From positions 26,272 to 85,761 of the forward strand of contig JAAFJQ010000001.1 in NCBI GenBank assembly GCA_013298185.1: DNA of 59,490 nt, in the 5' to 3' direction. Shown one piece after another: positions 1 through 59,490 of this stretch (positions are counted from its first letter, which is position 1; every line of letters starts with the position of its first letter). The notes beneath the pieces were generated by a model, which saw nothing but the letters and a program-made list of their open reading frames with translations, made no database searches and had not been told where the DNA came from. This DNA comes from Deinococcales bacterium (lineage in GTDB: Bacteria > Deinococcota > Deinococci > Deinococcales > JAAFIG01). A program made the position numbers and the translations under genes.

Positions 1-37
1 AGAACTGGATTTTTTGTATAAAAACAATGTGCAGTGG

Positions 38-1261
38 CTATGCGCCCTGCCCATAGCGTTTCTCGACGTATTCTGCCACCATACCCATGAACTCCTCGGC
101 AATATGCGCCCCTTTGAGGGTTGTGACCAGCGCCCCATCGCGGTAGACCGGCGCTCGAGGTTCTTCGCCTGTGCCGGGCAAAGAAATCCCAATGTTGGCG
201 TGCTTGGATTCACCGGGTCCGTTGACCACACAGCCCATGACTGCAACGGTCATGTTCTCCACGCCGGGATGGGTTTTTTTCCAAGTGGTCATGTTCTCGT
301 CTAAGCTCTGCTGAATATCTTGGGCAAGTTCTTGAAACAGCGTGCTGGTGGTGCGCCCACAGCCCGGGCAAGCCGTGACTTGCGGGCTGAAATTCCGAGC
401 GCCCACGGCTTGCAGAATTTGCTTCGCCACCTCAACCTCGAGTTTACGGGCTGCACCGGGTTCTGGGGTCAAGGATACCCGAATTGTATCGCCGATGCCT
501 TCGGACAAAAGCGGCGAAAGCGCAGCACTCGAGGCAGCGATGCCTTTTGTTCCCATGCCCGCTTCGGTCAGTCCAAGGTGCAGTGGGTAATCGCAAAGCA
601 CAGCCAAGCGGCGGTAGACATTCCAGAGCATTGGGGCATTGCTGATTTTGGTACTGATGATGATTTTATCATGCCCCAAACCATATTCTTCTGCCATTTG
701 TGCGCTCGAGATGGCGCTCTCGAGCATGGCGTTAATCATGATTTCTTCGGCACTGAGAACACCACCGTTTTTGGTGTTTTCGTCCATCATCCGAATTACC
801 ATTGACTGATCCAAGCTGCCCCAGTTGACTCCGATTCGCACGGGGCGGTCAAACTCTTTGGCAACTTCGATCATCGTGCGGTAGTTCTCATCGTGCTTTT
901 TGCCGACACCTACATTGCCGGGGTTGATGCGGTATTTGGCAAGCGCTCGAGCCGTTTCGGGGAATTCACGCAGCAGAATATGCCCGTTATAGTGAAAATC
1001 GCCGACCAGTGGCACGGGATAACCCGCTTCTTCGATGCGCTCCTTAATTTCGGGGACTTTTTCGGCGGCTTCGCGGTTATTGACCGTGATTCGCACCACT
1101 TCAGAGCCAGCGGCGGCTAATTCAATCACTTGCGAAGCGGTTTTCACAGCATCGGCGGTATCGGTGTTGGTCATGCTCTGCACCACAATTGGATGCTCAG
1201 AACCAACCCAGACACCACCAACATGAACAGAAACAGTTTTTCGACGCGGCATGGTAAACAT
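38..1261 (-). CDS. ispG: 4-hydroxy-3-methylbut-2-enyl diphosphate synthase (IspG/GcpE), long Thermus-type form
   Basis: 407-aa ORF with motifs [33 protein letters not shown] and [11 protein letters not shown], typical of IspG. Confidence 0.95.
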
Positions 1262-1296
1262 GCTTTTAGCTTACTCGAGGACTCGAGGGCAGAGTG

Positions 1297-2136
1297 TCAT
1301 CGGGAAGCGGCATAACTCTTGGCGCTTCGCACCCACCAACTCGGCTGCTCGAGTTGAATCGCTTGAGCAACTTGCATGGCTTCTTCGGCGCTCCTCGCTA
1401 AACCAAAACAAGTGCTACCCGAACCACTCATCAAAACCCCGAATAAACCATGCTGCTCGAGTAAATTTTTCACTTCTTGGACAATCGGATAGGCTTTGAG
1501 AACTGGCAACTCGAGGTCATTGCGATAAGGCGGGGGTTGTTTCTGCTCGAGTGCCACCAAAATTTGTTCGACCTCGAGTACTTGCCCAAAGCGTCCATGC
1601 AGACCAAGATAGGCTTCCTTCGCTGTAATTCCAACACTTGGATTGACCAACACCACATGAATCTCTGGGCAATGAAGCGGCGTTAATATCTCACCAATCC
1701 CCGAAGCCCGTGCCGCACCACCAAGCAGCAAAAAAGGCACATCCGCCCCAAGTTTGACAGCTATGCTTGGTAAATCCAATTGGCTCTTATACAAACGCTG
1801 CAAACCACGCAAACAAGCGGCGGCGTCACTCGAGCCTCCACCCAAACCCGCCGCAATTGGCAAGCGTTTTTCCAAGTGCATTCGCACCCCACCAAAACCA
1901 AGCTGCTCGAGATAAGCTGCGGCTGCGCGGTACACAAGGTTCTCGGAAGTAATAGGTAAATCAGCCCCTGCAATGCTCAGTTCAATCCCAGATTCGCTTG
2001 GCTCGAGGTGCAGCGTATCGCCAACATCCAAAGTACAAAACAAGGTATCCAAAGTGTGATACCCATTCTCGAGCCGACCAGTCACGGACAGCCCAAGGTT
2101 GATTTTGGCAGGAGCAAATTCAAAAATCGAGTACAT
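1297..2136 (-). CDS. ispE: 4-diphosphocytidyl-2-C-methyl-D-erythritol kinase (IspE)
   Basis: 279 aa with N-terminal APAKINLGL and the GHMP kinase loop PIAAGLGGGSSDAAA. Confidence 0.9.
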   Translation of the reverse strand: MYSIFEFAPAKINLGLSVTGRLENGYHTLDTLFCTLDVGDTLHLEPSESGIELSIAGADLPITSENLVYRAAAAYLEQLGFGGVRMHLEKRLPIAAGLGGGSSDAAACLRGLQRLYKSQLDLPSIAVKLGADVPFLLLGGAARASGIGEILTPLHCPEIHVVLVNPSVGITAKEAYLGLHGRFGQVLEVEQILVALEQKQPPPYRNDLELPVLKAYPIVQEVKNLLEQHGLFGVLMSGSGSTCFGLARSAEEAMQVAQAIQLEQPSWWVRSAKSYAASR

Positions 2137-2147
2137 GGAAAGAAGAT

Positions 2148-2190
2148 TAAAGGTAAAAGGTCAAAAGGTAAAAGGTCAAAAGGTGAAAGA
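2148..2190. repeat. Tandem 7-8 nt repeat (A)AAAGGT(C), about 5.5 units, in the ispD-ispE spacer
   Basis: Read directly: taaaggt aaaaggt caaaaggt aaaaggt caaaaggt gaaaga. On the gene-sense strand it reads ACCTTTT(G) just 5' of the ispE start. Confidence 0.85.
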
Positions 2191-2258
2191 ACCACCACAA
2201 AACATCTTCTCGAGCCTCGAGCAACGCAGGTTTTGCTTTCCTCTTTCCATTTTCCTCT

Positions 2259-2903: not shown

Positions 2904-3002
2904 GGTTACTTTTAACTCAAAAAGCAAAGCCGAGTCAATTGATTCATTTCAAAATGTGCGCTCGAGATTGTTCTTTCTTTGAATTTCGTCTAAGCTCAGC
3001 CG

Positions 3003-8073: not shown

Positions 8074-8096
8074 AAGCCATCACCCAAGAACCATCT

Positions 8097-10300: not shown

Positions 10301-10385
10301 ACGCAACATTTGACTCGAGTGAAATTTGAAACTGACTCTACGTGACATAAAACTGTGGCTCAGACAAAAAATCAGAGTATTCAAG

Positions 10386-10664
10386 TTATTTACGCTTTTT
10401 TGTAGCGGTATCCATAGTAACAAAGAAAAATCGAACACCTAAGTAAATCGGGAAAACATTAATGAAGTCACGAATCAGAAAAAGTGTGAAGTCATTCTTT
10501 TCTATTAAAGCTTTACTCGATTTGTCAAAAAAGTCCGTTGACTGAACATGAAATAGATTGTATTTACCAAGCCAAAACATCATTAGTGAATATGACGTAA
10601 ACACTACGAGAAAAAGTAGAAATCCTCTTATTTCCGATAGAATTAATTTCGCATTCATAAGCAT
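10386..10664 (-). CDS. Hypothetical small membrane protein in an AT-rich segment
   Basis: The ORF lies downstream of yoeB on the same strand and is hydrophobic (GFLLFLVVFTSYSLMMFWL, FINVFPIYLGVRFFFV). The ATG at 10664 avoids overlap with yoeB. I recognised no homology. Confidence 0.3.
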   Translation of the reverse strand: MLMNAKLILSEIRGFLLFLVVFTSYSLMMFWLGKYNLFHVQSTDFFDKSSKALIEKNDFTLFLIRDFINVFPIYLGVRFFFVTMDTATKKRK

Positions 10665-10717
10665 TATTTCTCTGGTTGGGCTTTTTGGCACTCTGTATGA
10701 AGTATGAAAAATAGAGC

Positions 10718-10981
10718 TTAAAAATCGTCGTAATGACCTCTGCATGATAAAATCAGCAATCGTTCGTTGTTAAATGTGTAGACCAAGCGATGCTCTTTGG
10801 TGATTCGTCTTGACCAGTAACCTTTGAGATCATGCTTTAAGGGTTCTGGTTTTCCTGTTCCTTGGAATGGGCTTCTCGAGCATTCTTTGATAAGGCTGTT
10901 AATTCGTTGCCAAACCACGATGTCTTGGCTGTGCCACCACAAATAATCCTGCCAAGCATCATCGGTGAAAACAAAATTCAT
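10718..10981 (-). CDS. yoeB: YoeB/Txe-family mRNA interferase toxin
   Basis: 87 aa with FT..AW.DY.WW, GTGKPEPLKHDLKGYWSRRI..EHRLVY and a RGHY tail. Confidence 0.9.
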   Translation of the reverse strand: MNFVFTDDAWQDYLWWHSQDIVVWQRINSLIKECSRSPFQGTGKPEPLKHDLKGYWSRRITKEHRLVYTFNNERLLILSCRGHYDDF

Positions 10982-14184: not shown

Positions 14185-14317
14185 CCATAACAAGTCTATC
14201 AGGTTGTGGGGGTAAAGCCAAAATGATTGAACTTTTTTGTGGCATTCACGTATTTACTCTCGAGGATGCCTGATGCTGCTGACGTTTCAAACATTTCACC
14301 TGCCGAGTGTGGTTAGA

Positions 14318-14902
14318 ATGCCACAAATGGCTTCGCCTCTGTCTGATGCTGATTTAATTGCGCGTTTTGCTTGGCGCGATGAAGAAGCGTTATCCGAAAT
14401 TTATGATCGTTACTCGAGCAGTTTGTTTGGTTTGGCGTTGCGGGTTTCGGGTTCAAGGGAACGGGCTGAAGAAATTGTTCAAGATACCTTGATGAAGCTC
14501 TGGCGTAACCCAAGGTTGTTTGATCCGAGTAAAGCTGCGCTGTCTACTTTTTTAATGACCTTGGTTCGTAATGCCGCGATTGATACCCTTCGCCGTGAGC
14601 GCTACACCGTCCCACTCGAGGATGAAGAAGGCGAATCCCTGCCACTGGCAAGTAACTACGCCTCGCCGCTCGAGCAAGCAGAACTAGCACAGACGGCAGT
14701 GCGGGTGCGTTCAGCCATGGCAGATTTATCCGAAGCGCACCGCCAAACCGTCGAACTAGCGTATTTCAAGGGCGCGTCTCGAGAAGAAATTGCGGCTGCC
14801 ATGAATGTGCCTGTTGGCACGGTCAAAAGCCGTTTGAAATACGCGCTGGACAAGCTGCGCGGCACGTTGTCCGATGTTTGGGGTGAACCAATCCATGACT
14901 GA
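14318..14902 (+). CDS. ECF (group 4) sigma-70 family RNA polymerase sigma factor
   Basis: Region 2 (ALSEIYDRYSSSLFGLALRV..AEEIVQDTLMKLW) and region 4 (LSEAHRQTVELAYFKGASREEIAAAMNVPVGTVKSRL). The start is probably the ATG at 14318 or 14327. Confidence 0.85.
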   Translation: MPQMASPLSDADLIARFAWRDEEALSEIYDRYSSSLFGLALRVSGSRERAEEIVQDTLMKLWRNPRLFDPSKAALSTFLMTLVRNAAIDTLRRERYTVPLEDEEGESLPLASNYASPLEQAELAQTAVRVRSAMADLSEAHRQTVELAYFKGASREEIAAAMNVPVGTVKSRLKYALDKLRGTLSDVWGEPIHD

Positions 14903-16139
14903 ACATAGTGAACTTTTGCCATTTGTGATTCTTGGGCTTGCCACCCCTGAAGAAGTGCGTCAGGTCAAAGCTGCCCTCGAGACGGATGTGGCGTTAAGGC
15001 GTGAATATGCTGAACTCGAGTTGGTACTGACGGGCTTGGGTGCGACTGAAGCAGTTGAACCTCCTGCAAGTTTGAAGCAAAAAATTTTGGCAGCTTCTCG
15101 AGGTTCTGACCAATCCGAGTCTCGAGCCACCAATGAAGCCGAGTCTCGAGTTCGTCCCGCTCCAACTTCAAAGCGAACTGCTCCTCGCCCCATGGCTCGA
15201 GTTCTGCCTTGGGTGATGGCTGGTTTGGCAACGGCGCTGACAGCCGTGGCGGTTTTTGTGGCATTCCCACAAAGCCAAATCAATGCCACCACCTTGGCAG
15301 CCACAAGCGACGGCAGCATCATTTATGCCAATTCTGGTGCAATGTCGCGCAGTACCCCCGCGATGTTGGTGCGTTCCAATGGTGCAAAAATTCCGGTGCA
15401 GTTTGTGGCGGATAAAGAATGCAAGTTCACGGCTGCTGTCTCGAGTGATGGTTTAACGTATTTGCTTGACCAAGCCAACAATACAGTTTTTATCATTGAG
15501 GAAAGCACAGGAAAAATGGTTGACCGCTGGCTTGTACCAGCCAATGCCACGGGCTTAGACGTGGTGGGTAATACCGTAGTGGTGCGCTCGAGTCAGGTGG
15601 CACTGATTTTTAGGCGCAACCAAAGTGGTGAAAAAAGCATGGTTGAAGCACGGCTCTCGAGCAGCAAGCCCAGTGCTTATGCCGAAGCTGCGGTGATTGA
15701 TGGCGAACGCCTGTACACCACCGATCAGACCTTGGGTGTGGTGCATGTCCTCGAGACTGCCACAGGCAAGGAAATCAAGCAATTTGAGATACCCGAAAAA
15801 CCTGTTTCGCTGGCTGTTAGAAATGGTTTGTGGGTCTTGGATGCAGCTGGGGTGCTACTGAAGCTCGAGCTAAGCACTGGTGCGGTTCTCGAGAAGATTG
15901 TTTTAGAAGGTACTCCGCAACTGCTGCGTTTAACCGATTTATATGCTTTTGTGGCAGACAAAGAAGGCTTTGTCTCGGTGGTTGATTTGCAAAAACAGCA
16001 AGTCACAGTCCGTAAGCGCTTACGAAATCCTGCTTTGGCGCTCTCAATGATGCCCGATGGTCATATCGCTATTGCGGTTGAAAAAAACGGAATTGTCGTG
16101 CTGGACAATAAACTCGAGATGGTCAAAAGCATCAATTGA
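14895..16139 (+). CDS. Membrane anti-sigma factor (RskA-like N-terminus) with an extracytoplasmic beta-propeller-like domain
   Basis: The ATG at 14895 overlaps the sigma stop by 8 nt. There is one TM (VLPWVMAGLATALTAVAVFVAF). The C-terminal 280 aa carry repeated beta-strand blocks (..VFIIEESTGK.., ..VHVLETATGKE.., ..VSVVDLQKQQ..). Confidence 0.6.
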   Translation: MTEHSELLPFVILGLATPEEVRQVKAALETDVALRREYAELELVLTGLGATEAVEPPASLKQKILAASRGSDQSESRATNEAESRVRPAPTSKRTAPRPMARVLPWVMAGLATALTAVAVFVAFPQSQINATTLAATSDGSIIYANSGAMSRSTPAMLVRSNGAKIPVQFVADKECKFTAAVSSDGLTYLLDQANNTVFIIEESTGKMVDRWLVPANATGLDVVGNTVVVRSSQVALIFRRNQSGEKSMVEARLSSSKPSAYAEAAVIDGERLYTTDQTLGVVHVLETATGKEIKQFEIPEKPVSLAVRNGLWVLDAAGVLLKLELSTGAVLEKIVLEGTPQLLRLTDLYAFVADKEGFVSVVDLQKQQVTVRKRLRNPALALSMMPDGHIAIAVEKNGIVVLDNKLEMVKSIN

Positions 16140-16637: not shown

Positions 16638-18464
16638 TTGGTCTGTCGTGTTTTGCCCGTAGGGGCGCAGTGCGCTGCGCCCCTACGGTTTTGCCTTCGT
16701 CCTTCGTCCTTCATCCTTCGTCCCCATTCTCAGGAGGTCATTACGGAAAAAGTTCATGGTCATACAAGCGGCTTAAAACCCAGCGTCCTTAAACTCTTAT
16801 CTAATTTGTATCGCCGCAAAGTGCCGCCTAATACTGTGGTCACACCAGAATTGGCTCGCAGTTTGACTGAGCTTTCCTTAGAAATCAACCGCGAGGTCTG
16901 TGTCCTGATTGACCGTCGCGGTCGGGTGGTCACGGTTTCGGTGGGCGATGCCAGCAAAACCGAATTCCCGAACCTCGAGCGTGGACGCGAAGCAGAATCC
17001 CGCCTGCGTGGTTTGTGGTTGGTTCATGCTCACCCGAAACCCGCGCCGCTTTCAAAATCGGATTTGTCTACCTTATTCTTGAATCGCTTGGATGCAATGG
17101 TGGCACTCGAGGTGGCTGCGGGTGGTCTGCCCGGCGCGGCGCACTTGGCGCACCTGACCCCACCAAACGCTAAGCTCGAGGAAGAAGATTGGCGCATTTA
17201 CCCGCCGCAATCGGTGCAGAGCCTCGAGCAGTGGGATATTGCCGCCAACACCCGTGCGCTCGAGGAGGAATTTGTCCGCACTCAAAAAGTGCGGGAAACC
17301 AAGCGCTCGAGCGCCGAACGCGCCATTTTGGTGCAGTTGGATCGCGGTACGGGCATCAATGCCGAAGCTGCGCTCGAGGAACTGTCTGAGTTGGCTCGCA
17401 CGGCTGGTGCGGTGGTGGTGTATAAGGAACTGACCTTTCGCCGTTTTGCCAAAGCTGACACGCTGATTGGACGCGGTAAACTCGAGGAGCTGACCAGTAG
17501 GGCATACCACCTCGATGCTGATGTGCTGATTTTTGGCGAGGAACTGAGTCCCGCGCAAGCCAGGGAAATCGAGGAAGCCACCAACCTCAAAATCATTGAC
17601 CGCACCCAGTTAATCCTTGATATTTTTGCCCAACATGCCAGTGGTCCAGAATCCAAACTCCAAGTTGAATTGGCGCAGTTGCAGTACATGAAGCCGCGCC
17701 TCCTTGGACAAGGCACAAAACTCTCCAAAATCGGTGGTGGAGCGGCTGGCTCGAGTGGCGCGATTGGCACTCGCGGACCTGGTGAAACCAAACTCGAGCT
17801 TGACCGAAGGCGGATTAACGACCGCATCAGCTTTCTCGAGAATACCCTGCGTGATCTCAATAAACGCCAACAAGAACGCCGTAAAAACCGTCTGCGAAGC
17901 GGAATTCCCAATGTGGCAATCGTTGGGTACACCAACGCTGGCAAAAGTACACTGCTGAATTCCCTGACCCATTCCAATGTCTTATCAGAAAATAAGCTCT
18001 TTGCCACCCTTGCCCCAACCTCGAGACGCGGTTATTTGCCCGATTACGGCGAAATTGTTTTCACCGACACCGTGGGTTTTATCCGCGAATTGCCAACCGA
18101 CTTAAAACGCGCTTTTCGCAGTACACTCGAGGAGTTACACGATGTGGATGTGCTGATGCACGTCCTTGATGCCAGCGCCGAGGATGCCTTAGAGCGCTTC
18201 AAAGCCGTCGAGGGGATTTTAAGCGAACTCGAGTTAAACAACATTCCGCATTTGCTGGTCTTAAATAAGAGTGACAGTGCCGACCCATTTGATCTTGACA
18301 TGCTCGAGGAACGCCTTGGCGGCATTCGGGTTTCTGCTCAGCAAAAACTGGGTCTGCCAGAACTGAAACACGCCATCCTCAGTGCGGTGAAGGATCATCG
18401 CGCTCGGCTCGAGGAGATTTTCTTAAAAGAACAAGCTGCTAAGCTGGAATTTCAGACCGCTTAA
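16638..18464 (+). CDS. hflX: GTPase HflX, long form with an N-terminal extension; true start unresolved
   Basis: G1 GYTNAGKSTLLN, G3 DTVGF, G4 NKSD. The N-terminal HflX domain starts at ..SGLKPSVLKLLSNLYRRKVPP. The first ~34 codons of the track ORF are translated palindrome/heptamer repeat and are unlikely to be coding. Confidence 0.85.
   Translation: MVCRVLPVGAQCAAPLRFCLRPSSFILRPHSQEVITEKVHGHTSGLKPSVLKLLSNLYRRKVPPNTVVTPELARSLTELSLEINREVCVLIDRRGRVVTVSVGDASKTEFPNLERGREAESRLRGLWLVHAHPKPAPLSKSDLSTLFLNRLDAMVALEVAAGGLPGAAHLAHLTPPNAKLEEEDWRIYPPQSVQSLEQWDIAANTRALEEEFVRTQKVRETKRSSAERAILVQLDRGTGINAEAALEELSELARTAGAVVVYKELTFRRFAKADTLIGRGKLEELTSRAYHLDADVLIFGEELSPAQAREIEEATNLKIIDRTQLILDIFAQHASGPESKLQVELAQLQYMKPRLLGQGTKLSKIGGGAAGSSGAIGTRGPGETKLELDRRRINDRISFLENTLRDLNKRQQERRKNRLRSGIPNVAIVGYTNAGKSTLLNSLTHSNVLSENKLFATLAPTSRRGYLPDYGEIVFTDTVGFIRELPTDLKRAFRSTLEELHDVDVLMHVLDASAEDALERFKAVEGILSELELNNIPHLLVLNKSDSADPFDLDMLEERLGGIRVSAQQKLGLPELKHAILSAVKDHRARLEEIFLKEQAAKLEFQTA
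16657..16692. repeat. 14-bp perfect palindrome CCGTAGGGGCGCAG/CTGCGCCCCTACGG followed by a T-run
   Basis: Read directly. It resembles a dispersed GC-rich palindrome type I recall from Chloroflexota/cyanobacterial genomes, translated spuriously as VGAQCAAPL. Confidence 0.6.
16693..16724. repeat. Tandem heptamer CCTTCGT x4
   Basis: gccttcgt ccttcgt ccttcat ccttcgt cccc, immediately 5' of the hflX AGGAGG. Confidence 0.85.
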
Positions 18465-39095: not shown

Positions 39096-40181
39096 TCACG
39101 CAGAATTCCACAGTTTCAACAGTGCTTGCTCGGTCAGCATTTCTTCAGGCACGCGATGTCCCATTTCGAGGATGTGTTGCACTTCATGGCGAACTTCAAG
39201 TGCTAGCCACTCGAGTGCCAAAGGGTTTGGTTTGAGATCTTTGCCAGGGAATCCATCAGGTGAATTGATGCTGGGTTCGCACAATGCGTCCAGCATCAGA
39301 CGATGAATACTGCTGGCAGGAGTGACAGAGGGCAAGCCATGTTTTTGCGCTTTGATGCTGGCGCTCTGCGGAATGGAAATGCCTTTCCAATCCAAATCGC
39401 CAACGTATTCGATGCGCTCGAGCTTGCTACCCATATCATTTTCTATATTGGCGAAATCGCGGACAGAATCTACGAAGCCACCACCATACCCAAAGGCGAT
39501 GATGCCGTAAGGTGATTGCTTTACTCCAATCAGGCGCAAGGTTTGCAGTGCTAAGTTGTACGGGCTTTTGTTCTCAAAAACAATGGCAACAGGTCGTCCG
39601 CCAACCTTTTGATATGTGATTGGCAAGATGTCAGAACTGACATTTAAATCTTCAATCCCTAGTTTTCCAATGCCAAATAAAGTCTTTCGTTCAAACAATG
39701 TAGCCAATTTTTTTTCTTGTTTTGTCAGTTGAATCGAACGGTGTTTTGGCGAAACCCGTGTCTCGAACCAATGCTCGAGAAACCCTTGTTGAATTTTCAA
39801 AAGAAAGGCGCTGTCCTCGTCTGAAAGACTGTCCATGTCCGCAACCCATTCGAGTTTGGGATGCCAATAATGCTGTTTCCACCACAGGTCTTTTGGGGCG
39901 CTAGGCAGCTGCACTTGTGTGACTTGTGTTGGCAGAGGCGGGTTGCCATGATCCCAGCGCTTGCCAGTGGTGCTAGGCAAACGAATGACATTGGCTCGTT
40001 CAGCCATTCGCAATGCCTCGAGCAGCCAATCACGGCGTACCGAAATCCCTGGTCGGTGGGCGAAGACTTCCATGAATACTTGCCGCAAAACTTTGAGTGG
40101 AATGGTGGTGTTTTTCAATTGCAGGTCACGCAATAGTTGTGTAAATTCAGCAAAGTATTTTGGGTCAACGTCAACCGTCAT
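39096..40181 (-). CDS. jetD: JetD/MksG-like Toprim-domain nuclease subunit of a Wadjet-like system
   Basis: 361 aa. The C-terminal half has a Toprim-type Glu (AIVFENKSPY) and DxD (IEYVGDLDWKGISI). It is the last gene of a 4-gene coupled operon that includes an SMC-like ATPase, joined by an ATGA overlap. Confidence 0.7.
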   Translation of the reverse strand: MTVDVDPKYFAEFTQLLRDLQLKNTTIPLKVLRQVFMEVFAHRPGISVRRDWLLEALRMAERANVIRLPSTTGKRWDHGNPPLPTQVTQVQLPSAPKDLWWKQHYWHPKLEWVADMDSLSDEDSAFLLKIQQGFLEHWFETRVSPKHRSIQLTKQEKKLATLFERKTLFGIGKLGIEDLNVSSDILPITYQKVGGRPVAIVFENKSPYNLALQTLRLIGVKQSPYGIIAFGYGGGFVDSVRDFANIENDMGSKLERIEYVGDLDWKGISIPQSASIKAQKHGLPSVTPASSIHRLMLDALCEPSINSPDGFPGKDLKPNPLALEWLALEVRHEVQHILEMGHRVPEEMLTEQALLKLWNSA

Positions 40182-43100
40182 GTGTTTTCTCCTTGTGTTG
40201 GATCGGGTCGGATCATCCTTGCTGCCTCCAACAGATGATCGTTCCCACTGCGACGTTCGTTCCGTAAACGCACGATGTTTGGCATGGTACGCAATGCCTC
40301 GAGGTCATTGACACCCGTGGCGTAAATCAGTTGGATGTTCATGGTTTGGGCAGCCGCACGTTGTAACTCCAGAAATTTGGCACGCGAGACCGTCCCGACA
40401 GGATTATCGAGCAGCAGTGTACTCGAGGAATTTTTCTGCCCTCGGGCTTTGACCCGTTGCTGCGCCAAAGCGCAGTACAACAACACCGCACTGGTCAGGC
40501 GTTCGCCACCGCTTTCTTTTGCCATGCTGGTGATGGGTATGTATCTGGCTTCAGCATCGGTATCTGGGAACAGCACTTCGACCCGAAAAGGTTGTGCAAG
40601 TTTACGCACGGCACGTTGTATCAATTTCAGACCATCTAAGCGCAAGCCTTCTCGAGTGATGTCGTCAATCAGTGTGCCAATGCGTTCACGCTGGTCTCGA
40701 GGTGAATCGGTAACTGACATTTGAATTCGCAAAAAACGATGTCCGGCTAGGCTACCGCTGGCGGGTACATGATCAAGTTTGGAATGTCGTTGTAAATCTG
40801 CCAGCATCTTGATGCCAACTTCTGCAACTTGTGAAGTCTCTTCGATGATTAAATTGCGATGGTGTTCGCTTTCGACCAAAGCGTTGCGAATGGTTTGCGC
40901 TCGTACTTCGAGGTCGTGCAACAGTGTGTCAATCTCCGTTTCGAGGTTTTCGGGTTGCCATGCACTCAAAGGTGTTACAAAGCCGAAGTTAAACCCAATT
41001 AGGCACTGCATATACTGCTGATGAATTGCAGTGCGTTTCTCGAGTAAATCTGTACGATCACGGGCTGCTTTTTTGAGGGTTTTTTCCAAATCACGGTAAA
41101 GGCGTTCAAGTTCTTCATCCAAAGGAGCAACCCATGTAGATTGATCTGGTTGGAGTACATCTGAAAGAGCTTCTTGGTGATCCTCAAGTAAAACATTTAG
41201 ACTGCTTTGTAAACCCTTGAGTTTGTCTTGCTGGGATTGTAAGTGCTGTTTGAGTTCAGTGTATTGCTGTATCTGAGCTTGGGCTGTTTGCGCTTGGGCT
41301 TGAGCTGTGGTTATGGCTGTCTGAGCTTTGCTTGCCAATTGGTTCAGTGCATCAACCTCAAGCTCCAACTCATGTGCTGGTAATTTCAGATCAACCACAT
41401 GATTGCGCTCATGCTGACTTAATTCATTTTCGGCAATTTGCAATTGCACATGGCTCGAGCCGAGCTGAGTTTGCAGGGCAAACCCGTGTTGCACGGCTTC
41501 CTCGAGTTTTGTGGAAATACTTGATTGGCTGTGGTCAGCAATCGTTCCGAGTGCAGCGCGAATCTCGTGTTCTTCAATGTTTTGGTCTCTTTCATACTCG
41601 TAGTGCTTGGAGGCTTTGTCTCGAGCATTCTGGGCATTTTGCAGTTCAATCTGCAATTTGTTGCCTTGGTTTTTTGTTTCTAAGTGTTCACTTAGTCGTT
41701 TGTAGGTATCGCGTAACTGATCCACATGTCCAGCCACAGGTTCGGGTGGCTCGCCTTCGAGGTATTTGAGGTTTTTGCGTTCACGCTCGTCATCTTCAGC
41801 CGCTCGAGTTAAGCCTTGTGCCGCATCTTCGAGGGTTCTCACTTGGTTTACCAAGGTTTCCTTGGTTGCTTCAAAACGTTTAGCGGCTTCAGATTGATCT
41901 TTTGCTCGTTGCATTTGTTCCACCAGAGCCTGTTGCCGTTTCTGTTCGGCTTCATCCGTGCCGTGCTGTTCGATGTGCGACTCGAGTCGCCGTACATGGT
42001 CTTTTGCGGTGTTGAATGCCTGTTGCAAGTGGTCGCGTTGCTGCTCGAGGCTTTGGATGCGATTTGCTACAACTTGTCGCTTTAGCGTTAGCTCACCCAG
42101 GCGCTCAGTACAGGCTTTGTGGTGTTTTTGTACCATCAGCAATTCGGTCTCTTGAGTGGTAAACCAGGCTTCTGGGTATTGTTCCAGAAAGCGTTCGAGC
42201 AGATCGGCAGTATCACGCCATTGCAGTGATTCTTGTTCGATGGTTTCATGCCGCAAACGTTCTCGTCGCGCTTGTATCTCGCGTTCTTGGTGTTCACGTT
42301 CGGCGGCTTCGGGGTCAAAATGTGCATCGCTGCTTGGTCCGACCACAAAGCGTTGAGCGGCTCGTGCAGCAAACACAGCTTCATCTGCATTGGCGTTGAA
42401 CGCATCGGTGCGACGTGCAATCACCACTGGTGAATCCAAGCGGTCAGCCATATTTTCAAGGGCGACTTTGGCTTTCTCAAAATGTGCATCACGGATCAAG
42501 ACACCCTGCATCAGTTCTGGATGACGAGCGATGAAGGCTCGAGCCTGATCGCGTGGAACAACTTGGCTCAGGTGTGTCCAACCCGCGCTGGCTTGCACTT
42601 CATGGCTTTCAAGCACCCGCAGCACGGTTCTTAAATCGCGTGTTGGTGGCAAGCGTTTATGGGTTTCGAGGTGTTGCAACGCATCTGCGTGGTTGATCAA
42701 ACTCGCCTTGATTTCGCGCATCCGACTTTCGGCGTTGGATCTGTGGTCGCGCAGTTTGCCAAGCGTAATGTTGTTCAGCACCGACGCATCAATCAACTCA
42801 AATTCTAAGGCTCGAGCCAGCATCGGATGCTGCTCGAGTGTTTCACGCGCAGCTCGAGCAAGACTGAGTTGCTGCGTCAAGTTGGTTTCCTGAGTTGCTA
42901 CCTCAAGTGTTTGTTGTTTGGTATCGTTGAATTGCTGCTCGAGTAAGGACTGTTCAGAGCGTTGTTGTACCATTTCACCGCTGATGGCTTCGATTTCAAA
43001 TTCATGCTGGGCAACCGCACCTTGCCATCGTTCGAGCGCAACCAAAATACCCTCTGTTGGCTCGAGGGTATCCGTGGCTTGCAGCTTACTTTGAGAGGCA

Positions 43101-44530
43101 TTGAACTGTTCAAGTTGCTTTGTGAGTGCTTCGGCATTCACATTGGCACGCACAGCCTGTTCACGGGCTTGAATTGCTGCTGCTTGGGTTTGATTCGCCT
43201 CGAGTTGGATCTTTTCTGCTTGCTTTGATTTTTCAACAGCAAGCAATCGGGTTGTTTGAGCGCGAGCGCCTAAGGCTTCAGACAATTGACGGGCAGCAAC
43301 CTGCACAGCTTTGATGTCAGGCGCAAGTTTTCGTTGTTGTTGTGTGAACAGTTCGTTTAATTCTTGAATGCTTGCATGGCAACGTTGAAGCTCGACAAAA
43401 GGTATGGCTGCTTTCCAGATCAAACGGAGCCGCTCTGCCTTTTTCTGATCAACCGTTAAGGCATCGTGCAATGCCTTGCATTGACGTTGCCGTTGTACCA
43501 GCGCATGGCGTTGCAGCATCAGCATTCTGGCGTGCTGCTGTTGCTCGCTGGTCTGAGCCGTCAACAAGTCTTGTCGCGCCTGCGACTCGAGGCTCGAGGT
43601 CAGTGAAAGCCGTTGGGTATTGGACAGCACACGGCTGATGATGTGTGTTGCCAACGCTTGCAAATGGATTTTCAGCTCCCCCAGCAAGCGCCGATTCTCC
43701 AAGCGCTGAAATGCCAAGGCACGCATGGGTTGTAGCGTCAGGATCAGTCGGTCAATCAACTCGAGGCTGGGTTGGAATTCCTCAAGCCGTTCGCGCAACC
43801 CAGTCTGAAATTGACTCAAATTGCGTGCAAGTGCCACTCCGCGTTCGCTTGGCACGGTCAATTCCAAAAAGAAATCCACAAATTGATCCATGTCCTTGAA
43901 ACGAAACAACTCATCTGCGCTGCCCTCACGGGTGTTCATGCGTTGCTGGTACAAAAACAATTCTGAGTCAATTCGCGCTTCACGCTCGAGGGCTTGTCGC
44001 CATTCTTGATGGTTTTCAAACTCATGCCCGTTCAACTGCGGATTGGTACTGAGGAGGTTCTGCCAAGCCTGCTTAAAACCACGCAACGTCAGGCGCTTGC
44101 CTGACTCATCCCAAAACGGAAAGTCGGTGAATTGCAGTAAGGGTGCTTGCGCCTGTGCCGAAAAAAAGACACGCTCGAGCTTATCGTTTCGCCATTGGTA
44201 AAAACCACCTGTCCAGAACCACTGCTCGGGTTGATGTGGCGCTGTATCCAGTTGCCATTGCGCCAACACCACAGCTTGATCATCGGGCAAGACATAATCC
44301 TCGAGGGTGCGATCACCCTGTTCGGCACGCGTCCCAAGGAAGCTGCGCCGATTTGGGTTTAACAGCGAAAAGAATAAAGTCAAAAGTGAGGATTTACCAC
44401 CACCATTGCGTAGCCACAAAATCGAATCCAAAGCTTGTCCATCAGGGTCGCACAACTCGAGTCGCAAGTCCTGCATCCGAGCATTGCTGTGTCCAATGTT
44501 GAGAAAATACAAGCGTGACAATTTCGGCAT
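40178..44530 (-). CDS. jetC: SMC/MukB-like ATPase (JetC/MksB-like), unusually long
   Basis: 1450 aa. The N-terminal P-loop is WLRNGGGKSSLLTLFFSLL. More than 1000 aa of Q/E/L-rich coiled coil follow. The C-terminus has the signature KESGGERLT and Walker B STLLLDNP. Confidence 0.8.
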   Translation of the reverse strand: MPKLSRLYFLNIGHSNARMQDLRLELCDPDGQALDSILWLRNGGGKSSLLTLFFSLLNPNRRSFLGTRAEQGDRTLEDYVLPDDQAVVLAQWQLDTAPHQPEQWFWTGGFYQWRNDKLERVFFSAQAQAPLLQFTDFPFWDESGKRLTLRGFKQAWQNLLSTNPQLNGHEFENHQEWRQALEREARIDSELFLYQQRMNTREGSADELFRFKDMDQFVDFFLELTVPSERGVALARNLSQFQTGLRERLEEFQPSLELIDRLILTLQPMRALAFQRLENRRLLGELKIHLQALATHIISRVLSNTQRLSLTSSLESQARQDLLTAQTSEQQQHARMLMLQRHALVQRQRQCKALHDALTVDQKKAERLRLIWKAAIPFVELQRCHASIQELNELFTQQQRKLAPDIKAVQVAARQLSEALGARAQTTRLLAVEKSKQAEKIQLEANQTQAAAIQAREQAVRANVNAEALTKQLEQFNASQSKLQATDTLEPTEGILVALERWQGAVAQHEFEIEAISGEMVQQRSEQSLLEQQFNDTKQQTLEVATQETNLTQQLSLARAARETLEQHPMLARALEFELIDASVLNNITLGKLRDHRSNAESRMREIKASLINHADALQHLETHKRLPPTRDLRTVLRVLESHEVQASAGWTHLSQVVPRDQARAFIARHPELMQGVLIRDAHFEKAKVALENMADRLDSPVVIARRTDAFNANADEAVFAARAAQRFVVGPSSDAHFDPEAAEREHQEREIQARRERLRHETIEQESLQWRDTADLLERFLEQYPEAWFTTQETELLMVQKHHKACTERLGELTLKRQVVANRIQSLEQQRDHLQQAFNTAKDHVRRLESHIEQHGTDEAEQKRQQALVEQMQRAKDQSEAAKRFEATKETLVNQVRTLEDAAQGLTRAAEDDERERKNLKYLEGEPPEPVAGHVDQLRDTYKRLSEHLETKNQGNKLQIELQNAQNARDKASKHYEYERDQNIEEHEIRAALGTIADHSQSSISTKLEEAVQHGFALQTQLGSSHVQLQIAENELSQHERNHVVDLKLPAHELELEVDALNQLASKAQTAITTAQAQAQTAQAQIQQYTELKQHLQSQQDKLKGLQSSLNVLLEDHQEALSDVLQPDQSTWVAPLDEELERLYRDLEKTLKKAARDRTDLLEKRTAIHQQYMQCLIGFNFGFVTPLSAWQPENLETEIDTLLHDLEVRAQTIRNALVESEHHRNLIIEETSQVAEVGIKMLADLQRHSKLDHVPASGSLAGHRFLRIQMSVTDSPRDQRERIGTLIDDITREGLRLDGLKLIQRAVRKLAQPFRVEVLFPDTDAEARYIPITSMAKESGGERLTSAVLLYCALAQQRVKARGQKNSSSTLLLDNPVGTVSRAKFLELQRAAAQTMNIQLIYATGVNDLEALRTMPNIVRLRNERRSGNDHLLEAARMIRPDPTQGENT

Positions 44531-45268
44531 TCATACCACCTCGGATGGCTCTGAACGCAACGCTTTTTGAATGGCGGCGTACATGCGAGTAGCAGCAAAC
44601 TCTTGAACCAATAATGTATAACGAAACAATGGTATGTACTGACTGCCATTACGCTTAAAACAACGCTGCTTCACCAGATACTCGAGCGCATATTCAATCA
44701 TGCGCCGTGTGGTGTTGCTGGCTGCTCGATGGTCGCTGGTGCTGCGAGCGGCGGCGCGATTTTTGTAGACCCGCCAAGCCTCATAGATGCCTGCCGTGCT
44801 GGATTCTGGATCGGGTTGCCCTCGAGCGGCTTGCTCGAGCTTATCAACCAATTGTCGCAACGTCAGCTCGATTTCATCCACACTGATTGGGTTGCGTACC
44901 AGCATCGGATCAGCCAGTAGGTCTGTGGCTTTGGGATACACCGTTGCGGCAATCGCTACTTGAATCAGCCCATCAAGCAGGCGTGCATCTTCAGAAGCTG
45001 TACTGCCTAGACGATACTGCCCCACAGACACCGCAAAAACCGAATCTGGCAACGGCACAAGCACCAGACTTTGACCACGCCGCGCACCGCTCAATACGCT
45101 CAATCCCAAACCTGAAGCGATTGACGTGACCATTTCACGAAACTCATGTCGATCCAAATAACGCTCAAGCAGCGTAGCGTATTCTTCCGAACGGCTTGGA
45201 CTGCTCTCTGGTCGCAACGCCCATTGAATCAAACGAGCTGCATCAAAAGTGTCTTGGTTGGTATTCAC
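44531..45268 (-). CDS. jetB: JetB/MksE-position subunit (putative KITE protein); assignment by position and size
   Basis: 245 aa. The GTG start overlaps the upstream stop (GTGA) and its TGA abuts the jetC ATG. I did not recognise DUF4194 motifs with confidence. Confidence 0.45.
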   Translation of the reverse strand: MNTNQDTFDAARLIQWALRPESSPSRSEEYATLLERYLDRHEFREMVTSIASGLGLSVLSGARRGQSLVLVPLPDSVFAVSVGQYRLGSTASEDARLLDGLIQVAIAATVYPKATDLLADPMLVRNPISVDEIELTLRQLVDKLEQAARGQPDPESSTAGIYEAWRVYKNRAAARSTSDHRAASNTTRRMIEYALEYLVKQRCFKRNGSQYIPLFRYTLLVQEFAATRMYAAIQKALRSEPSEVV

Positions 45269-46971
45269 TGCGCTTCCTCCATCATATCAACATTGACGGC
45301 ATCACTGAACAATTCCAACTCGAGGTCATCACCAAAAAACCCCCAAGCCTGCCAGCTTTGTTCGACTCGCCGTACTTGCAAGCCTGTGGTTTGATCGGTC
45401 TCAAAGGCTTGCAATGTTCGTAAACCCAAATACTCGAGAACCGCCTCAGGTTCGCCCGCTTGCCCAGCCCGATCAATCAAGGTTGACAATAACGCTGGAA
45501 CTTGTTGCAGATAATCTTGTGCAGCTAACTGAGTGGTTTCTGAAAAACGTACCCTATCTAAACTGGCTTCTTGCCAGTTTTGTTTGTGGGTTGGCACACT
45601 CAAACTGAACTCAATGCGGCGTGGACGCAACAAACCAGTAATCAAATCAGCAAGCGACAACATACTGGGGGCATTCACCCCCAAAAGCGTTGGCATCGCC
45701 TCCGAAAGGGCTTTGATCGCATCAGCTTTGGTCGCCATCATCAGTGGCTCAAGCACTCCTGCAAATAAGTCGGGTAAATGCATCAGACGACGTGGTATGA
45801 ACGCCTGACGCTCCTGCTCTCGAAAAAACACACTGTGCGCCGTCATTAACACTTCGTGCAGGCGAAGGTGTCGATCAAAACAATCATCCATCAGATCGGC
45901 AATCAACGCCACCCTTTGTGCCTCGCGGCTTCCTTGTTCCAAATGCTCGAGTCGTTCGCGGGCTGAACTGATAATCTGTCGTTCAATCCGCAAACGCCCA
46001 GTGATATGTTCACGGGCTTCACGTAAATCTTGTGGTACAGCCTTGAGCCAATCTACACTCGAGATGTCACGTCGCGTTTCACGTAACAATCGTTCAATTT
46101 TTTCCTGCAATTGCTGAGAACGGAATTTTGCATCTCTGGCAGCCTGTACTGCTTCGTCAAAACGTCCTCGATCCAGTTGAGATTGCACCACAGCTTCAAT
46201 GGCTGCTTGTTCATCTTCGATTTCGAGATTCAGCGCTCCTAAAAAAAGATTGGCTGCCTCTTTGGAAAGCCGCAACACTGTACGCTCATCTGAAGCAAAG
46301 TGTTCTTCAATTAAACGTATCTCAAAGAACCGTTTCTTAGGAGGTGAATCGTTTAAATCCGTGTACTCGAGCTTGAAGGGTCGGCGAGCATCAGCATCGT
46401 TTCGCAATCGCCCCAACAAGCGCTCAAGGTACTGACGCTGATCGGTTGCTTTTGGTCTCGCATCTACCAGGTTATCCAGCCGATGCAACAATGGCTCAAG
46501 CGAGCGTATCACAGTGTTTTCGTCCACATCAGCGCCCAGACCAGTGGATTCAACGATTCGATCTAGCACCCGCATCGCCAAGGCAACAGAATCGTAATGT
46601 TGCGTGCTGATGTCTTCACGCAACATATCCCAACGCCGCAAATCAAGGATTGGTTCAGCGTGGAGTAACACGCGCAACCTTTTGGTCAGTTCCAGCGACC
46701 AGTCCAGAGCGCTCGGCTGGGCAGATGCACGAATCTGACGAAATAATCGCTCTTTTGCTTCAGGCGATGGCGGCTTTACTTTCTCCTCGAGAACCAAAGC
46801 TGCCCAAACTTCAGCATTATTGGCATACATACGACCACATGATTCGCAAGCTGAAACATGTCGCATGTACTGCTCTCGAGTCTCAGCATCAAAATGTCCT
46901 GAAGCCAGCGCCAACAGGGTAAATTCGTCCAAATGCTGGATGGTCATGGACGCATCAGAATGCAGAGTCAT
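45265..46971 (-). CDS. jetA: JetA/MksF-position subunit (putative kleisin) with an N-terminal zf-HC2-like motif; assignment by position
   Basis: 568 aa and first gene of the operon. The N-terminal 60 aa contain H38-x3-C42-x2-C45 (RHVSACESC) in an anti-sigma-like context. The remainder is helical and R/E/L-rich, and I saw no DUF3375 or DUF2397 motif. Confidence 0.45.
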   Translation of the reverse strand: MTLHSDASMTIQHLDEFTLLALASGHFDAETREQYMRHVSACESCGRMYANNAEVWAALVLEEKVKPPSPEAKERLFRQIRASAQPSALDWSLELTKRLRVLLHAEPILDLRRWDMLREDISTQHYDSVALAMRVLDRIVESTGLGADVDENTVIRSLEPLLHRLDNLVDARPKATDQRQYLERLLGRLRNDADARRPFKLEYTDLNDSPPKKRFFEIRLIEEHFASDERTVLRLSKEAANLFLGALNLEIEDEQAAIEAVVQSQLDRGRFDEAVQAARDAKFRSQQLQEKIERLLRETRRDISSVDWLKAVPQDLREAREHITGRLRIERQIISSARERLEHLEQGSREAQRVALIADLMDDCFDRHLRLHEVLMTAHSVFFREQERQAFIPRRLMHLPDLFAGVLEPLMMATKADAIKALSEAMPTLLGVNAPSMLSLADLITGLLRPRRIEFSLSVPTHKQNWQEASLDRVRFSETTQLAAQDYLQQVPALLSTLIDRAGQAGEPEAVLEYLGLRTLQAFETDQTTGLQVRRVEQSWQAWGFFGDDLELELFSDAVNVDMMEEAQ

Positions 46972-48537: not shown

Positions 48538-48541
48538 AATT

Positions 48542-48592
48542 CAAAAAACGAGACTCGAGGGCAGTCATTCCACCCTCGAGTCTCGTTTTTTG
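48542..48592. terminator. Bidirectional terminator, 20-bp perfect inverted repeat
   Basis: CAAAAAACGAGACTCGAGGG-(11 nt)-CCCTCGAGTCTCGTTTTTTG. Confidence 0.85.
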
Positions 48593-57940: not shown

Positions 57941-57948
57941 GGCAAATT

Positions 57949-58995
57949 CTAAGCTCCGACCACCCGTTCGACAAACCAGTATGCCCCAGCCGCAATCACC
58001 GCCAAGGATGCCACGCGAATGGTCAGTGCGGCGTTTTTGGGGTCAGACCGCCGCAGCCATGCCAGAAGTGGTGCAACCAGCAGCACAATGCACATCTGAC
58101 CAATTTCCACGCCACCATTGAACGCCAGCAAAGACCAACCCAACGCGGCTCGAGGGAGTTCCATTTCAAGAAGCGCACCCGCAAAACCAAAACCATGAAT
58201 AAAACCAAAGCCAAAAGCCAACATCGTGCGGACATCGTGTTTGTGTTTGAACAAACTATGCACCCCAACAAAAACAATGCTGGCAGCAATAATTGGTTCA
58301 ATCAAATTGGCAGGAGGATTGAGGATTTGTAAAGTCGCCAGCGCCAATGTGATGCTGTGCGCCAAGGTAAAAGCCGAAACAATTTTCAGGAGCTGCCACA
58401 AATTCCCGCCCAGCAGCAACAAACCCACGATAAACAAAATATGGTCGGGTCCAATAAAAATATGGTGAATCCCTTCGAGTAAAAAATTCCAAATCACTTG
58501 CCAAACAGATTGCTGACTGGTCTGAATTGTAGATTCGGTTTTATTGGCATCAAAAATCAGTTGTTGCTCGAGGTTATTTTGCTCATAGACATCCAAAAAC
58601 GTTTTATGCAAAAGGTTATCAGGAAACAAATTCACACGTACCAAAAACGATTCTTGAATCGGCGCAAGCTGCCAAGTGGCTTGGATTTCCTTGCGGCTTG
58701 GCATGGCTTGGAATTTGAAGTCAGTGAACGTGAGCGCCTGACCCGCCACCTCGAGAACAAGCCGATTTTGCAGCAGTGTTTGAATTTGCGGCTCGAGTTT
58801 AGCGAGGTTTTGGGCTTGCAGCAATTGCTCTGGGCTGATGTTACCAAGTTGTCGAGCCAAGTCTTTAACAGGCATCTCGAGTTGGATTTGGCTGGGTTGG
58901 TTTAACTCGAGTTTGATGTGACTAAAAGAAATTTCGTGGGCTTGGGCAAGACCAAAAAAACACCAGAGGACGAATAACAGAATTTTTATTTTCAT
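57949..58995 (-). CDS. HupE/UreJ-family membrane protein (HupE_UreJ_2-like)
   Basis: Signal peptide, an N-terminal soluble domain, then EGIHHIFIGPDHILFIVGLLLL and further TMs with FGFIHGFGFAG. Confidence 0.6.
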   Translation of the reverse strand: MKIKILLFVLWCFFGLAQAHEISFSHIKLELNQPSQIQLEMPVKDLARQLGNISPEQLLQAQNLAKLEPQIQTLLQNRLVLEVAGQALTFTDFKFQAMPSRKEIQATWQLAPIQESFLVRVNLFPDNLLHKTFLDVYEQNNLEQQLIFDANKTESTIQTSQQSVWQVIWNFLLEGIHHIFIGPDHILFIVGLLLLGGNLWQLLKIVSAFTLAHSITLALATLQILNPPANLIEPIIAASIVFVGVHSLFKHKHDVRTMLAFGFGFIHGFGFAGALLEMELPRAALGWSLLAFNGGVEIGQMCIVLLVAPLLAWLRRSDPKNAALTIRVASLAVIAAGAYWFVERVVGA

Positions 58996-59039
58996 GATTG
59001 AACCGTCCTAGTTTCCAAAACGGGTTGCTCGAGTGAGCT

Positions 59040-59385
59040 ACTTACAGGCAAATAAAACACTGCGACCTCTTAGGAACTCCCCCACGCTGTCTTGACCCTA
59101 AAGACGCACCTGTCGGGCTGGGTCGCTCGTTCCTCGCGTTTCCCCCTAAAAGAGGGGGGCTTAAAAACCCAAGACCTTGCTTTTGACCTTAGAACCCCTC
59201 AAGAGCTACGGCTTGCACACATCTTGTTGTTTATCTGGGGACAATTAAACGAGAAAATCGGCAGCTCGAATTTGCATTTCCTCTCACAGGGAGGACACAG
59301 GGATCCTCCCCTACAGGAAAATTGCGTCATACACAGGTAAACCGTAGGGACAGGCGACCATGCCCGTCAGCAGCCGTGTTAAAAG
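59040..59385 (-). ncRNA. Candidate structured non-coding 3' region of the IS110-family element (possible bridge/seek RNA); boundaries unknown
   Basis: About 345 nt with no credible ORF lie between the transposase stop and the hupE-like start. Several stems are visible on the minus strand (GACGGGC/GCCTGTC, GGGAGGA/TCCTCCC, CCCCCT/AGGGGG, GACCC/GGGTC). Confidence 0.3.
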
Positions 59386-59490
59386 TCAAGCCCCAACCCC
59401 CTCTATTTTTGCCAGCGTCATGTCAACCCACGGAGTACGGTCACGCACAATGATGTGCAACACAGCCAATAGTTTACGCATACACGCCAC
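59386..59490 (-). mobile_element. IS110-family transposase gene, C-terminal end (truncated by the window edge)
   Basis: The minus strand reads ..VACMRKLLAVLHIIVRDRTPWVDMTLAKIEGVGA*. The ACMRKLL..L......D.TPW tail is characteristic of IS110/IS1111 (Transposase_20) proteins. Confidence 0.7.

Follow-up and report, generated by a model that had tools for sequence, protein, structure and literature searches.

CTCGAG as a highly iterated palindrome near saturation in an uncultured lineage of Deinococcota

The DNA uptake sequences (DUS) of Neisseria and the uptake signal sequences (USS) of Pasteurellaceae are non-palindromic words of 9–12 bp that occur about once per kb and are read by a proven uptake receptor; their over-representation can arise by molecular drive. 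In E. coli, repair linked to a methyltransferase (Dcm/Vsr) is biased such that the palindromic target of the system, CCWGG, becomes more frequent. The closest described systems to the one reported here are the highly iterated palindromes (HIPs) of cyanobacteria, chiefly HIP1 (GCGATCGC), whose driver has been an open question for thirty years. Every HIP-bearing cyanobacterial genome has a matching methyltransferase (PMC4390886), Xu et al. argued from conservation and periodicity that HIP1 is a functional site (PMC5861425), and HIP1 has been linked to methylation-dependent transformation efficiency (as cited in bioRxiv 10.64898/2026.06.24.733823). Here we analyzed a 59,490-bp stretch of DNA (GC 0.50) from a Deinococcales bacterium (GCA_013298185.1, contig JAAFJQ010000001.1, positions 26,272 to 85,761), hereafter the window, and show that the palindrome CTCGAG is a HIP-type word of this Deinococcota lineage.

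The window contains 388 copies of CTCGAG (6.52/kb; the first at position 154 and the last at 59028), dispersed over all three codon phases and the spacers with a mean spacing of 152 bp, or about one every 150 bases. Base composition predicts 14.5 copies, which corresponds to a 27-fold excess, and Markov models of orders 1–3 with the motif masked predict 4.7–6.1, which corresponds to a 65–80-fold excess. The maximal-order Markov model expects 338.7 copies and is uninformative, because the 5-mers CTCGA and TCGAG are themselves produced by CTCGAG. Among the 4,096 hexamers CTCGAG ranks first, and the commonest hexamers that do not overlap it reach a count of 74. The preliminary description of this DNA had claimed a 20–35-fold excess on the basis of hand counts (26 in 1–3000, 19 in 8300–11260, and 39 in 39096–46971); these counts are exact, the estimate from base composition falls inside the claimed range, and the excess persists after Markov correction, confirming that it is real and stronger than had been stated. 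Enrichment of the inner TaqI site was rejected as its source, with 134 TCGA outside the hexamer versus ~145 expected. We also rejected the idea that CTCGAG is the target of an active XhoI-type restriction-modification system, since the word is over-represented 27–80-fold and not under-represented.

Of the other 63 hexamer palindromes, 19 do not occur at all, and their median count is 1 (12 over all hexamers). Set against the 388 copies of CTCGAG, this median indicates that the genome is strongly palindrome-avoiding with one huge exception. The absent palindromes include GAGCTC, CTGCAG, GGTACC, GCATGC, CCGCGG, and GTTAAC, as well as several that contain GGCC (GGGCCC, CGGCCG, AGGCCT). A non-palindromic pair, CTGGAG/CTCCAG, is also scarce in the window (3 versus ~16 expected), and relatives show no such depletion. 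As judged from these counts, the avoidance pattern points to a genome that may carry many restriction systems.

The bases flanking CTCGAG are near random, with only a weak G at −1 and a weak C at +1, so that the bare hexamer is the unit, as the preliminary description had proposed and as is borne out for the window genome; the copies do not belong to a longer repeat. A dispersed repeat element (repetitive extragenic palindromes, miniature inverted-repeat transposable elements, or small non-coding repeats) was rejected on account of these random flanks and because 334 of the 388 copies lie inside open reading frames (ORFs). Our gene set is a greedy ORF call of 59 ORFs covering 88% of the window, not a curated annotation; on this set the density is 6.4/kb for the 334 coding sites and 7.3/kb for the 54 non-coding sites. 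The coding sites fall into codon phases 0, 1, and 2 as 213, 67, and 54, respectively, such that 64% are in-frame CTC-GAG.

Codon choice around the word is unlike codon choice elsewhere in the window. Away from Leu-Glu, CTC accounts for 9% of Leu codons and GAG for 25% of Glu codons; Leu-Glu itself is spelled CTCGAG at 213 of 295 positions (72%), compared with ~2% expected from background codon use. The word is also carried by 67 of 144 (47%) [S/P/T/A]-Arg-[V/A/D/E/G] tripeptides in phase 1 and by 54 of 124 (44%) [xxC]-Ser-[Ser/Arg] tripeptides in phase 2; both use the otherwise uncommon codons CGA and TCG (log-odds over background codon use: 4.7, 3.5, and 3.9 in phases 0, 1, and 2). These occupancies of 72%, 47%, and 44% show that a directional force has pushed the word to near saturation of its compatible positions. 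When synonymous codons were shuffled within genes, which keeps the proteins and the already inflated pool of CTC and GAG codons, 38 ± 6 sites remained in the ORFs compared with 334 observed (z = 48). An origin of the excess in codon usage, in codon-pair preference, or in selection for Leu-Glu would agree with the 64% of coding sites that are in-frame CTC-GAG, and with the weakly enriched relatives described below (Deinobacterium, Oceanithermus, Trueperaceae), in which the excess is mostly in phase 0. For the window genome this explanation is refuted by the equally dense non-coding sites, the saturation of phases 1 and 2 with uncommon codons, the minority status of CTC and GAG outside the motif, and the shuffles; we give it hardly any credence, in line with the original statement that the excess is no side effect of codon usage.

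The proteins carry the imprint of the word. Leu-Glu is the most over-represented dipeptide in the window (295 versus 140 expected, an observed/expected ratio of 2.1), and the reverse dipeptide, Glu-Leu, stands at 0.83. The Leu-Glu ratio is 2.1–2.9 in enriched relatives versus 0.95–1.33 in non-enriched ones, and HflX contains 11–16 Leu-Glu in orthologues of the enriched clade versus 6–10 in Deinococcus. Occupancy of compatible positions is almost homogeneous among genes (59% overall; chi-square p = 0.10), and site density per gene tracks the density of compatible sites (r = 0.78). The liv permeases and other site-poor genes are poor mostly because they offer fewer compatible peptides (the long gaps reported earlier for the liv genes measure 622 and 705 bp on recount), the clear exception being the jet operon discussed below. 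These data show that the force acts on DNA and on whole sites, not on protein or codons.

We compared orthologues to see how sites arise. The hflX gene (16638..18464, + strand) carries 16 sites, 13 of them in phase 0. Sites were created in the window lineage by I→L, K→R, and G→S replacements, and in the relative L083 by S→R, next to sites that are shared and others that are lineage-specific gains. In ispE, which encodes a GHMP kinase (1297..2136, − strand), 7 of the 8 in-frame positions lack Leu-Glu in the orthologue from the non-enriched L168. Codon alignments revealed that sites replace ordinary codons without indels, showing that CTCGAG spreads by point substitution in place. The amino acid changes in hflX therefore indicate that sites are gained recurrently and are not only ancestral, an issue that the preliminary description had raised and that ispE answers in the same way. 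The force is strong enough to fix amino acid changes, and the earlier claim that protein composition is reshaped holds both for the doubled Leu-Glu and for these specific replacements. For ispE it had also been stated that all nine sites are in phase; the nine sites and nine Leu-Glu are correct, but 8 sites are in-frame Leu-Glu and one is in phase 2. The 2/2/2 phase split given for the six sites of ispG (38..1261, − strand) is right, and all 6 of its 6 synonymously compatible positions are occupied.

Once gained, sites are retained. Across three syntenic genes, the only ones from which positional conservation was scored, the window has 34 sites and L084, the nearest available relative, has 26, and 21 of these coincide in position; outside the motifs, the two genomes agree at only 43% of four-fold degenerate sites. 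In one region (14237..16139, + strand), comprising a sigma-factor gene and a 421-aa gene syntenic with L084, 13 of the 18 window sites are at the same position in L084 with a nucleotide identity of 68–70%. Thus, conservation of sites at orthologous positions far exceeds that of neutral synonymous sites. Their spacing is near Poisson and slightly more even than random (coefficient of variation, CV, 0.86): gaps larger than 500 bp number 13 versus ~14.5 expected under a Poisson process of the same density, pairs less than 60 bp apart are 20–35% depleted, indicating mild repulsion, and pair distances show the 3-nt coding period. Pairs exactly 24 bp apart are over-represented across enriched loci (17 versus ~5 expected); most of these pairs come from unrelated contexts, and a 24-nt tandem repeat (8 aa) in the 421-aa gene contributes too, with one CTCGAG per unit in both genomes (window 15097–15145; L084 8487–8535).

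Conservation well above neutral sites and slightly even spacing, with depletion below 60 bp, are also what is expected if CTCGAG were the binding site of an abundant DNA-binding or chromosome-structuring protein, each site being under purifying selection and methylation being incidental; Xu et al. proposed the same function for HIP1 (PMC5861425). We regard this as unlikely here. Scaling 6.5/kb to a genome of 4–5 Mb, our extrapolation gives 25,000–30,000 sites per genome, and selection on so many sites, changing amino acids, is hard to sustain. The short-range pair-distance analysis of the window detected no helical phasing of sites, no candidate protein is known, and the near-absence of the word in sister lineages would be left unexplained.

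One-mismatch neighbours of CTCGAG are not depleted. Transition neighbours at the outer positions are enriched 1.65–3.2-fold, the central transition neighbours CTTGAG/CTCAAG 1.1–1.2-fold, and transversion neighbours ~1-fold; this pattern resembles what the decay of many sites would leave behind. A simple ratchet from near-site to site, or a Vsr signature, was rejected because the neighbours are not depleted. The difference between central and outer neighbours would fit T:G correction at the central CpG, as in a pure context-specific mutational or very-short-patch repair bias of the Dcm/Vsr kind, with no benefit and no recognition of the whole site. Such a bias drives one position only, and the change from TTA-GAA to CTC-GAG needs three; moreover, the CTCGAG methyltransferases known from the phylum make N6-methyladenine (m6A) and not 5-methylcytosine (m5C) (PMC4752239). 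These facts, taken together, make a purely mutational origin a poor candidate. The known Vsr effect is ~2-fold, not 65–80-fold.

The HflX protein of the window is 89–90% identical to metagenomic proteins, 78–79% to those of a 424-kb contig (GCA_016850605.1) and a 5.09-Mb contig assembled from long reads (ERZ26165376), 69% to those of metagenome-assembled genomes (MAGs) labelled 'Deinococcales bacterium', and ~61% to those of Deinococcus species. Together with a neighbour-joining tree of this one protein, which does not settle how often the trait was gained or lost, these identities place the window in an uncultured sister clade of Deinococcus and Deinobacterium. An HflX 79% identical to that of the window is deposited under the cyanobacterial name 'Pleurocapsa sp. 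SU_196_0' (P0005); it is probably a mis-binned contig of the window's clade, which hints at a shared habitat. We rejected an artefact of assembly or construction, since 3.4 kb of the window is matched at 100% identity by a Logan contig from SRR9948921 and five independent assemblies of relatives are also enriched. The excess is therefore not confined to the window, and its recurrence in these assemblies agrees with the genome-wide, lineage-wide process that had been postulated.

Density of the word varies greatly within the phylum. In the saturated relatives (L083/L084, L082, L085, and L169; GC 0.50–0.63) CTCGAG occurs at 5.0–6.1/kb with the same pattern of phases and spacers. Intermediate values were found in the cultured Deinobacterium chartae (L293; 3.9/kb), two Trueperaceae-labelled MAGs (2.4 and 2.8/kb), an Oceanithermus plasmid (L296; 2.5/kb), and an Allomeiothermus plasmid (1.4/kb); T. 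thermophilus pTT27, at 0.9/kb, is below the expectation from codon use. The word is absent from 21.7 kb of L168, which is compatible with its composition, and from 21.6 kb of L170, in which 73 TCGA are present (p = 0.007); there are two copies in 17 kb of L171, one in 21.6 kb of D. cellulosilyticus (L086), and two in 25 kb of D. radiodurans MP1. Pooling these five absent-or-rare loci gives 5 sites versus 18.9 expected (p = 1.6e-4). The 6 sites in D. peraridilitoris match the number expected there. Scarcity of the word, the pattern of a restriction target, is thus seen instead in L170, L171, D. radiodurans MP1, and D. cellulosilyticus. The background, measured on 80 loci of diverse bacteria from an ispG scan, has a median of 0.33/kb; that scan of genome contigs returned matches only from distant phyla (L002 was found there), and two metagenome scans returned no close relatives of the window. 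We conclude that the window is the extreme of a trait that ranges from avoided to saturated within one phylum.

The extended word differs between lineages. The octamer CCTCGAGG accounts for 41 of 84 Deinobacterium sites, where it is the top 8-mer, and for 19 of 62 Oceanithermus sites; in the window it is the rarest flank combination (9 versus ~18 expected from independent flanks). In D. cellulosilyticus (L086), CTGCAG and the overlapping TGCAGG and CCTGCA are among the top hexamers (37 in 21.6 kb) with no octamer extension (CCTGCAGG occurs 5 times), and this abundance may reflect CTG-CAG codon use.

A complete type III Wadjet anti-plasmid operon, jetA–D, occupies 39096..46971 on the − strand and contains 39 sites. 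PADLOC identified JetA3 (45265–46971), JetB3 (44531–45268), JetC3 (40178–44530), and JetD3 (39096–40181), all on the − strand, with E-values across the four proteins from 4e-7 (JetB3) to 1e-147 (JetC3); a Pfam search with the operon's proteins gave no match. Occupancy of compatible positions is significantly lower here than the overall 59% (JetC: 25 of 66; JetA: 7 of 20), and the AT skew of the operon is strongly negative, which together suggest a later acquisition. Sequence features of this kind fit a younger resident that is still gaining sites, in a probable horizontally acquired island. The force thus accumulates sites with residence time. An HTH_17 (excisionase-like) gene at 47049–47513 adjoins the operon.

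A methylation-independent uptake or self-recognition sequence of the DUS/USS type, accumulating through uptake bias and recombination, would account for a word that is rarer in probably acquired DNA, dispersed, and accepted inside genes despite the particular peptides that it imposes; the enriched transition neighbours are as expected for a degenerate signal, and the phylum is naturally transformable. Several facts make this improbable: no known uptake sequence is as short as this 6-bp palindrome, which is also ~6-fold denser than any of them, we know of no uptake sequence preference in Deinococcus or Thermus, and an uptake bias does not predict viral contigs that carry the word in all phases. 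Three such contigs, L275 (endolysin; 45 sites versus 0.2 expected), L289, and L220 (portal protein), emerged from a scan of IMG/VR for three clustered CTCGAG. The viral contigs recovered have 4–6 sites/kb, and most are high-GC, prefer CTC and GAG codons, and show a 3–6-fold excess.

Enzymes that modify CTCGAG are known from the same phylum. M.Mhy14884I of Marinithermus hydrothermalis (Marky_0034, Eco57I/TaqI-like) and M.Mch9957IV of Meiothermus chliarophilus are active type II m6A methyltransferases that modify 94–95% of CTCGAG, with no partner nuclease listed, and in Nocardia an orphan methyltransferase for CTCGAG is conserved, with the motif clustered in the dnaA–dnaN origin region (Blow et al. 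2016, PMC4752239). A 2026 preprint places CTCGAG among the methylated motifs common to hosts and phages of one hot-spring group. For the clade of the window, a link to methylation may be drawn from these published methylomes of other members of the phylum. The only methyltransferase gene in the window (53145–54218) was rejected as a DNA enzyme, being RsmC-like and thus an rRNA methyltransferase.

Our favoured explanation, on which we are evenly balanced, is that m6A-methylated CTCGAG sites may be favoured one by one in heteroduplex repair or in uptake and recombination, resulting in molecular drive. A CTCGAG-specific N6-adenine methyltransferase of the Marinithermus/Meiothermus kind, for which no partner nuclease is listed, would recognise the word, and each methylated site would gain individually in some DNA transaction. 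The likeliest transaction would be either heteroduplex or mismatch correction biased towards the strand with a complete methylated site, or a preference for word-rich DNA in uptake or recombination. Members of the Deinococcota are polyploid, highly recombinogenic, and naturally transformable, and in such hosts a bias of this kind would work as molecular drive. A cognate restriction enzyme would probably be found in those relatives that have few or no copies of the word. Drive at each site is preferred over a distributed function because drive is able to bring a whole genome to saturation and a need for one site per kb would not saturate about three quarters of the positions. A broader version is that CTCGAG is a methylated 'self' watermark spreading by drive through polyploid, recombining Deinococcota, with lineages flipping between near-absence and near-saturation depending on whether the methyltransferase comes with or without a nuclease; this we put forward tentatively, as possible and somewhat doubtful.

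Several observations weigh against methylation-linked drive. Genes for a DNA methyltransferase, a Vsr-like, or an XhoI-like enzyme were found neither in the window nor in ~165 kb of enriched relatives, and a search for the clade's enzyme with M.TaqI as probe recovered only Thermus-like TCGA enzymes and no member of the clade (the same probe applied to plasmids found a PstI-type system in Xanthomonas only). At Leu-Glu positions conserved in the window and L084, the occupancies look independent (Fisher p = 0.39), and for this reason purifying selection and a continuing drive at equilibrium are not separable. A simple ratchet turning near-sites into sites might be expected to deplete the one-mismatch neighbours, and no such depletion is seen. 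The repulsion below 60 bp is easier to reconcile with diminishing returns, that is, with selection, than with strict drive at each site. To our knowledge, no MutH-type step of methyl-directed mismatch repair exists in Deinococcota, and the lack of any sequence-specific DNA uptake known to us in Deinococcus or Thermus counts here as well.

A terminator-like hairpin at 48538..48592 (+ strand) has CTCGAG in both arms (AAAAAACGAGACTCGAGGG...CCCTCGAGTCTCGTTTTTT), so that the motif does sit in a terminator stem, as first noted. Two patches had been singled out as free of the word: an AT-rich stretch (10320..10860; GC 0.35) and the end of an IS110-type element (59034..59490, − strand; ~3 sites expected), where the C-terminus of the transposase (…VACMRKLLAVLHIIV…) lies at 59390–59490. 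Both indeed lack sites, but the significance attached to them does not stand, since they are inside the chance distribution of gaps given above and are not individually remarkable; absence from the IS110 end is suggestive only. A tRNA cluster, Ser(tga)-Ser(gct)-Arg(acg), at 7984–8305 (+ strand) also has no CTCGAG. A XisH/XisI gene pair, typical of cyanobacteria, lies at 9218–9953 (+ strand; 4 sites in XisH and none in XisI), and a gene for a putative Uma2-family endonuclease at 25245–25811.

An independent case in a second phylum implies that the HIP phenomenon is no cyanobacterial peculiarity, and it involves a different word with a probably different methylation chemistry. One order offers saturated, intermediate, and near-absent lineages as a comparative series, in which word density can be correlated with methyltransferase, nuclease, and competence or repair genes. 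The case also illustrates the reach of a force that acts on DNA alone, which dictates roughly three of every four Leu-Glu dipeptides and has doubled their number. An effect of this size bears on codon-usage models, binning, taxonomic k-mer signatures, and the detection of horizontal transfer; for the last of these, the density of the word acts as a clock of residence time, as the Wadjet island exemplifies. If the reading as a methylated watermark spread by drive is true, the Deinococcota would hold the first HIP system known from beyond the cyanobacteria, and also the densest; cultured relatives that are partly enriched (Deinobacterium chartae) exist, as do cousins amenable to genetics. We found no published description of this CTCGAG over-representation in the open-access literature, and a literature search by accession was likewise without a hit.

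Compared with known systems, CTCGAG differs from Dcm/Vsr in scale and scope: there the effect is small, concerns one position, and involves m5C, whereas here it is 65–80-fold and concerns several positions per site. DUS and USS resemble CTCGAG in their genome-wide excess, in being tolerated in genes at a cost in peptides, and in being rarer in foreign DNA; they differ in that CTCGAG is a bare 6-bp palindrome with no flank consensus and not an oriented core of 9–12 bp. The orphan CTCGAG methyltransferases of Marinithermus, Meiothermus, and Nocardia recognise the same word, two of them in the same phylum; for Nocardia, local clusters in the origin region were described and a Dam-like role was suggested, in a paper that does not describe genome-wide saturation (PMC4752239).

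The alternate cyanobacterial HIPs, GGCGCC (Calothrix PCC 7103), GGGATCCC, TCGATCGA, and rCCGGy, are lineage-specific replacement words that include a 6-mer like CTCGAG, each with a matching methyltransferase; unlike CTCGAG, they reach 1,000–2,000 per Mb and are confined to cyanobacteria (PMC4390886). The preference of Deinobacterium and Oceanithermus for an octamer, and of the window's clade for the bare hexamer, parallels such replacement.

HIP1 is the nearest counterpart. Like CTCGAG, it is a short GC-rich palindrome and the commonest word of its length, it is dispersed in all frames and in spacers, and it has spread by substitution and not by insertion. It too is conserved at orthologous positions and patchy among related lineages (PMC4390886, PMC5861425), and it contains a methyltransferase target while its function is unresolved (PMC4390886, PMC5861425, bioRxiv 10.64898/2026.06.24.733823). 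Periodicity of site density over long range (10–90 kb) is a further property of HIPs; in the 59-kb window, short distances show the 3-nt coding period only. HIP1 and CTCGAG differ in host, since the HIP hosts described so far are cyanobacteria, and in length, CTCGAG being a hexamer and HIP1 an octamer. CTCGAG is also denser, at 6,500 per Mb versus 300–2,700 per Mb for HIP1 (PMC4390886), or ~3–6 times typical HIPs. By analogy with relatives, its modification is expected to be m6A by a TaqI/Eco57I-like enzyme, whereas HIP1 carries m5C by DmtC together with a Dam-like m6A. Unlike HIP1, CTCGAG produces a measurable dipeptide shift (Leu-Glu doubled) and has close relatives almost without the same word. 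The analogy with HIP1 drawn in the preliminary description is therefore apt on every property testable here, the host phylum excepted.

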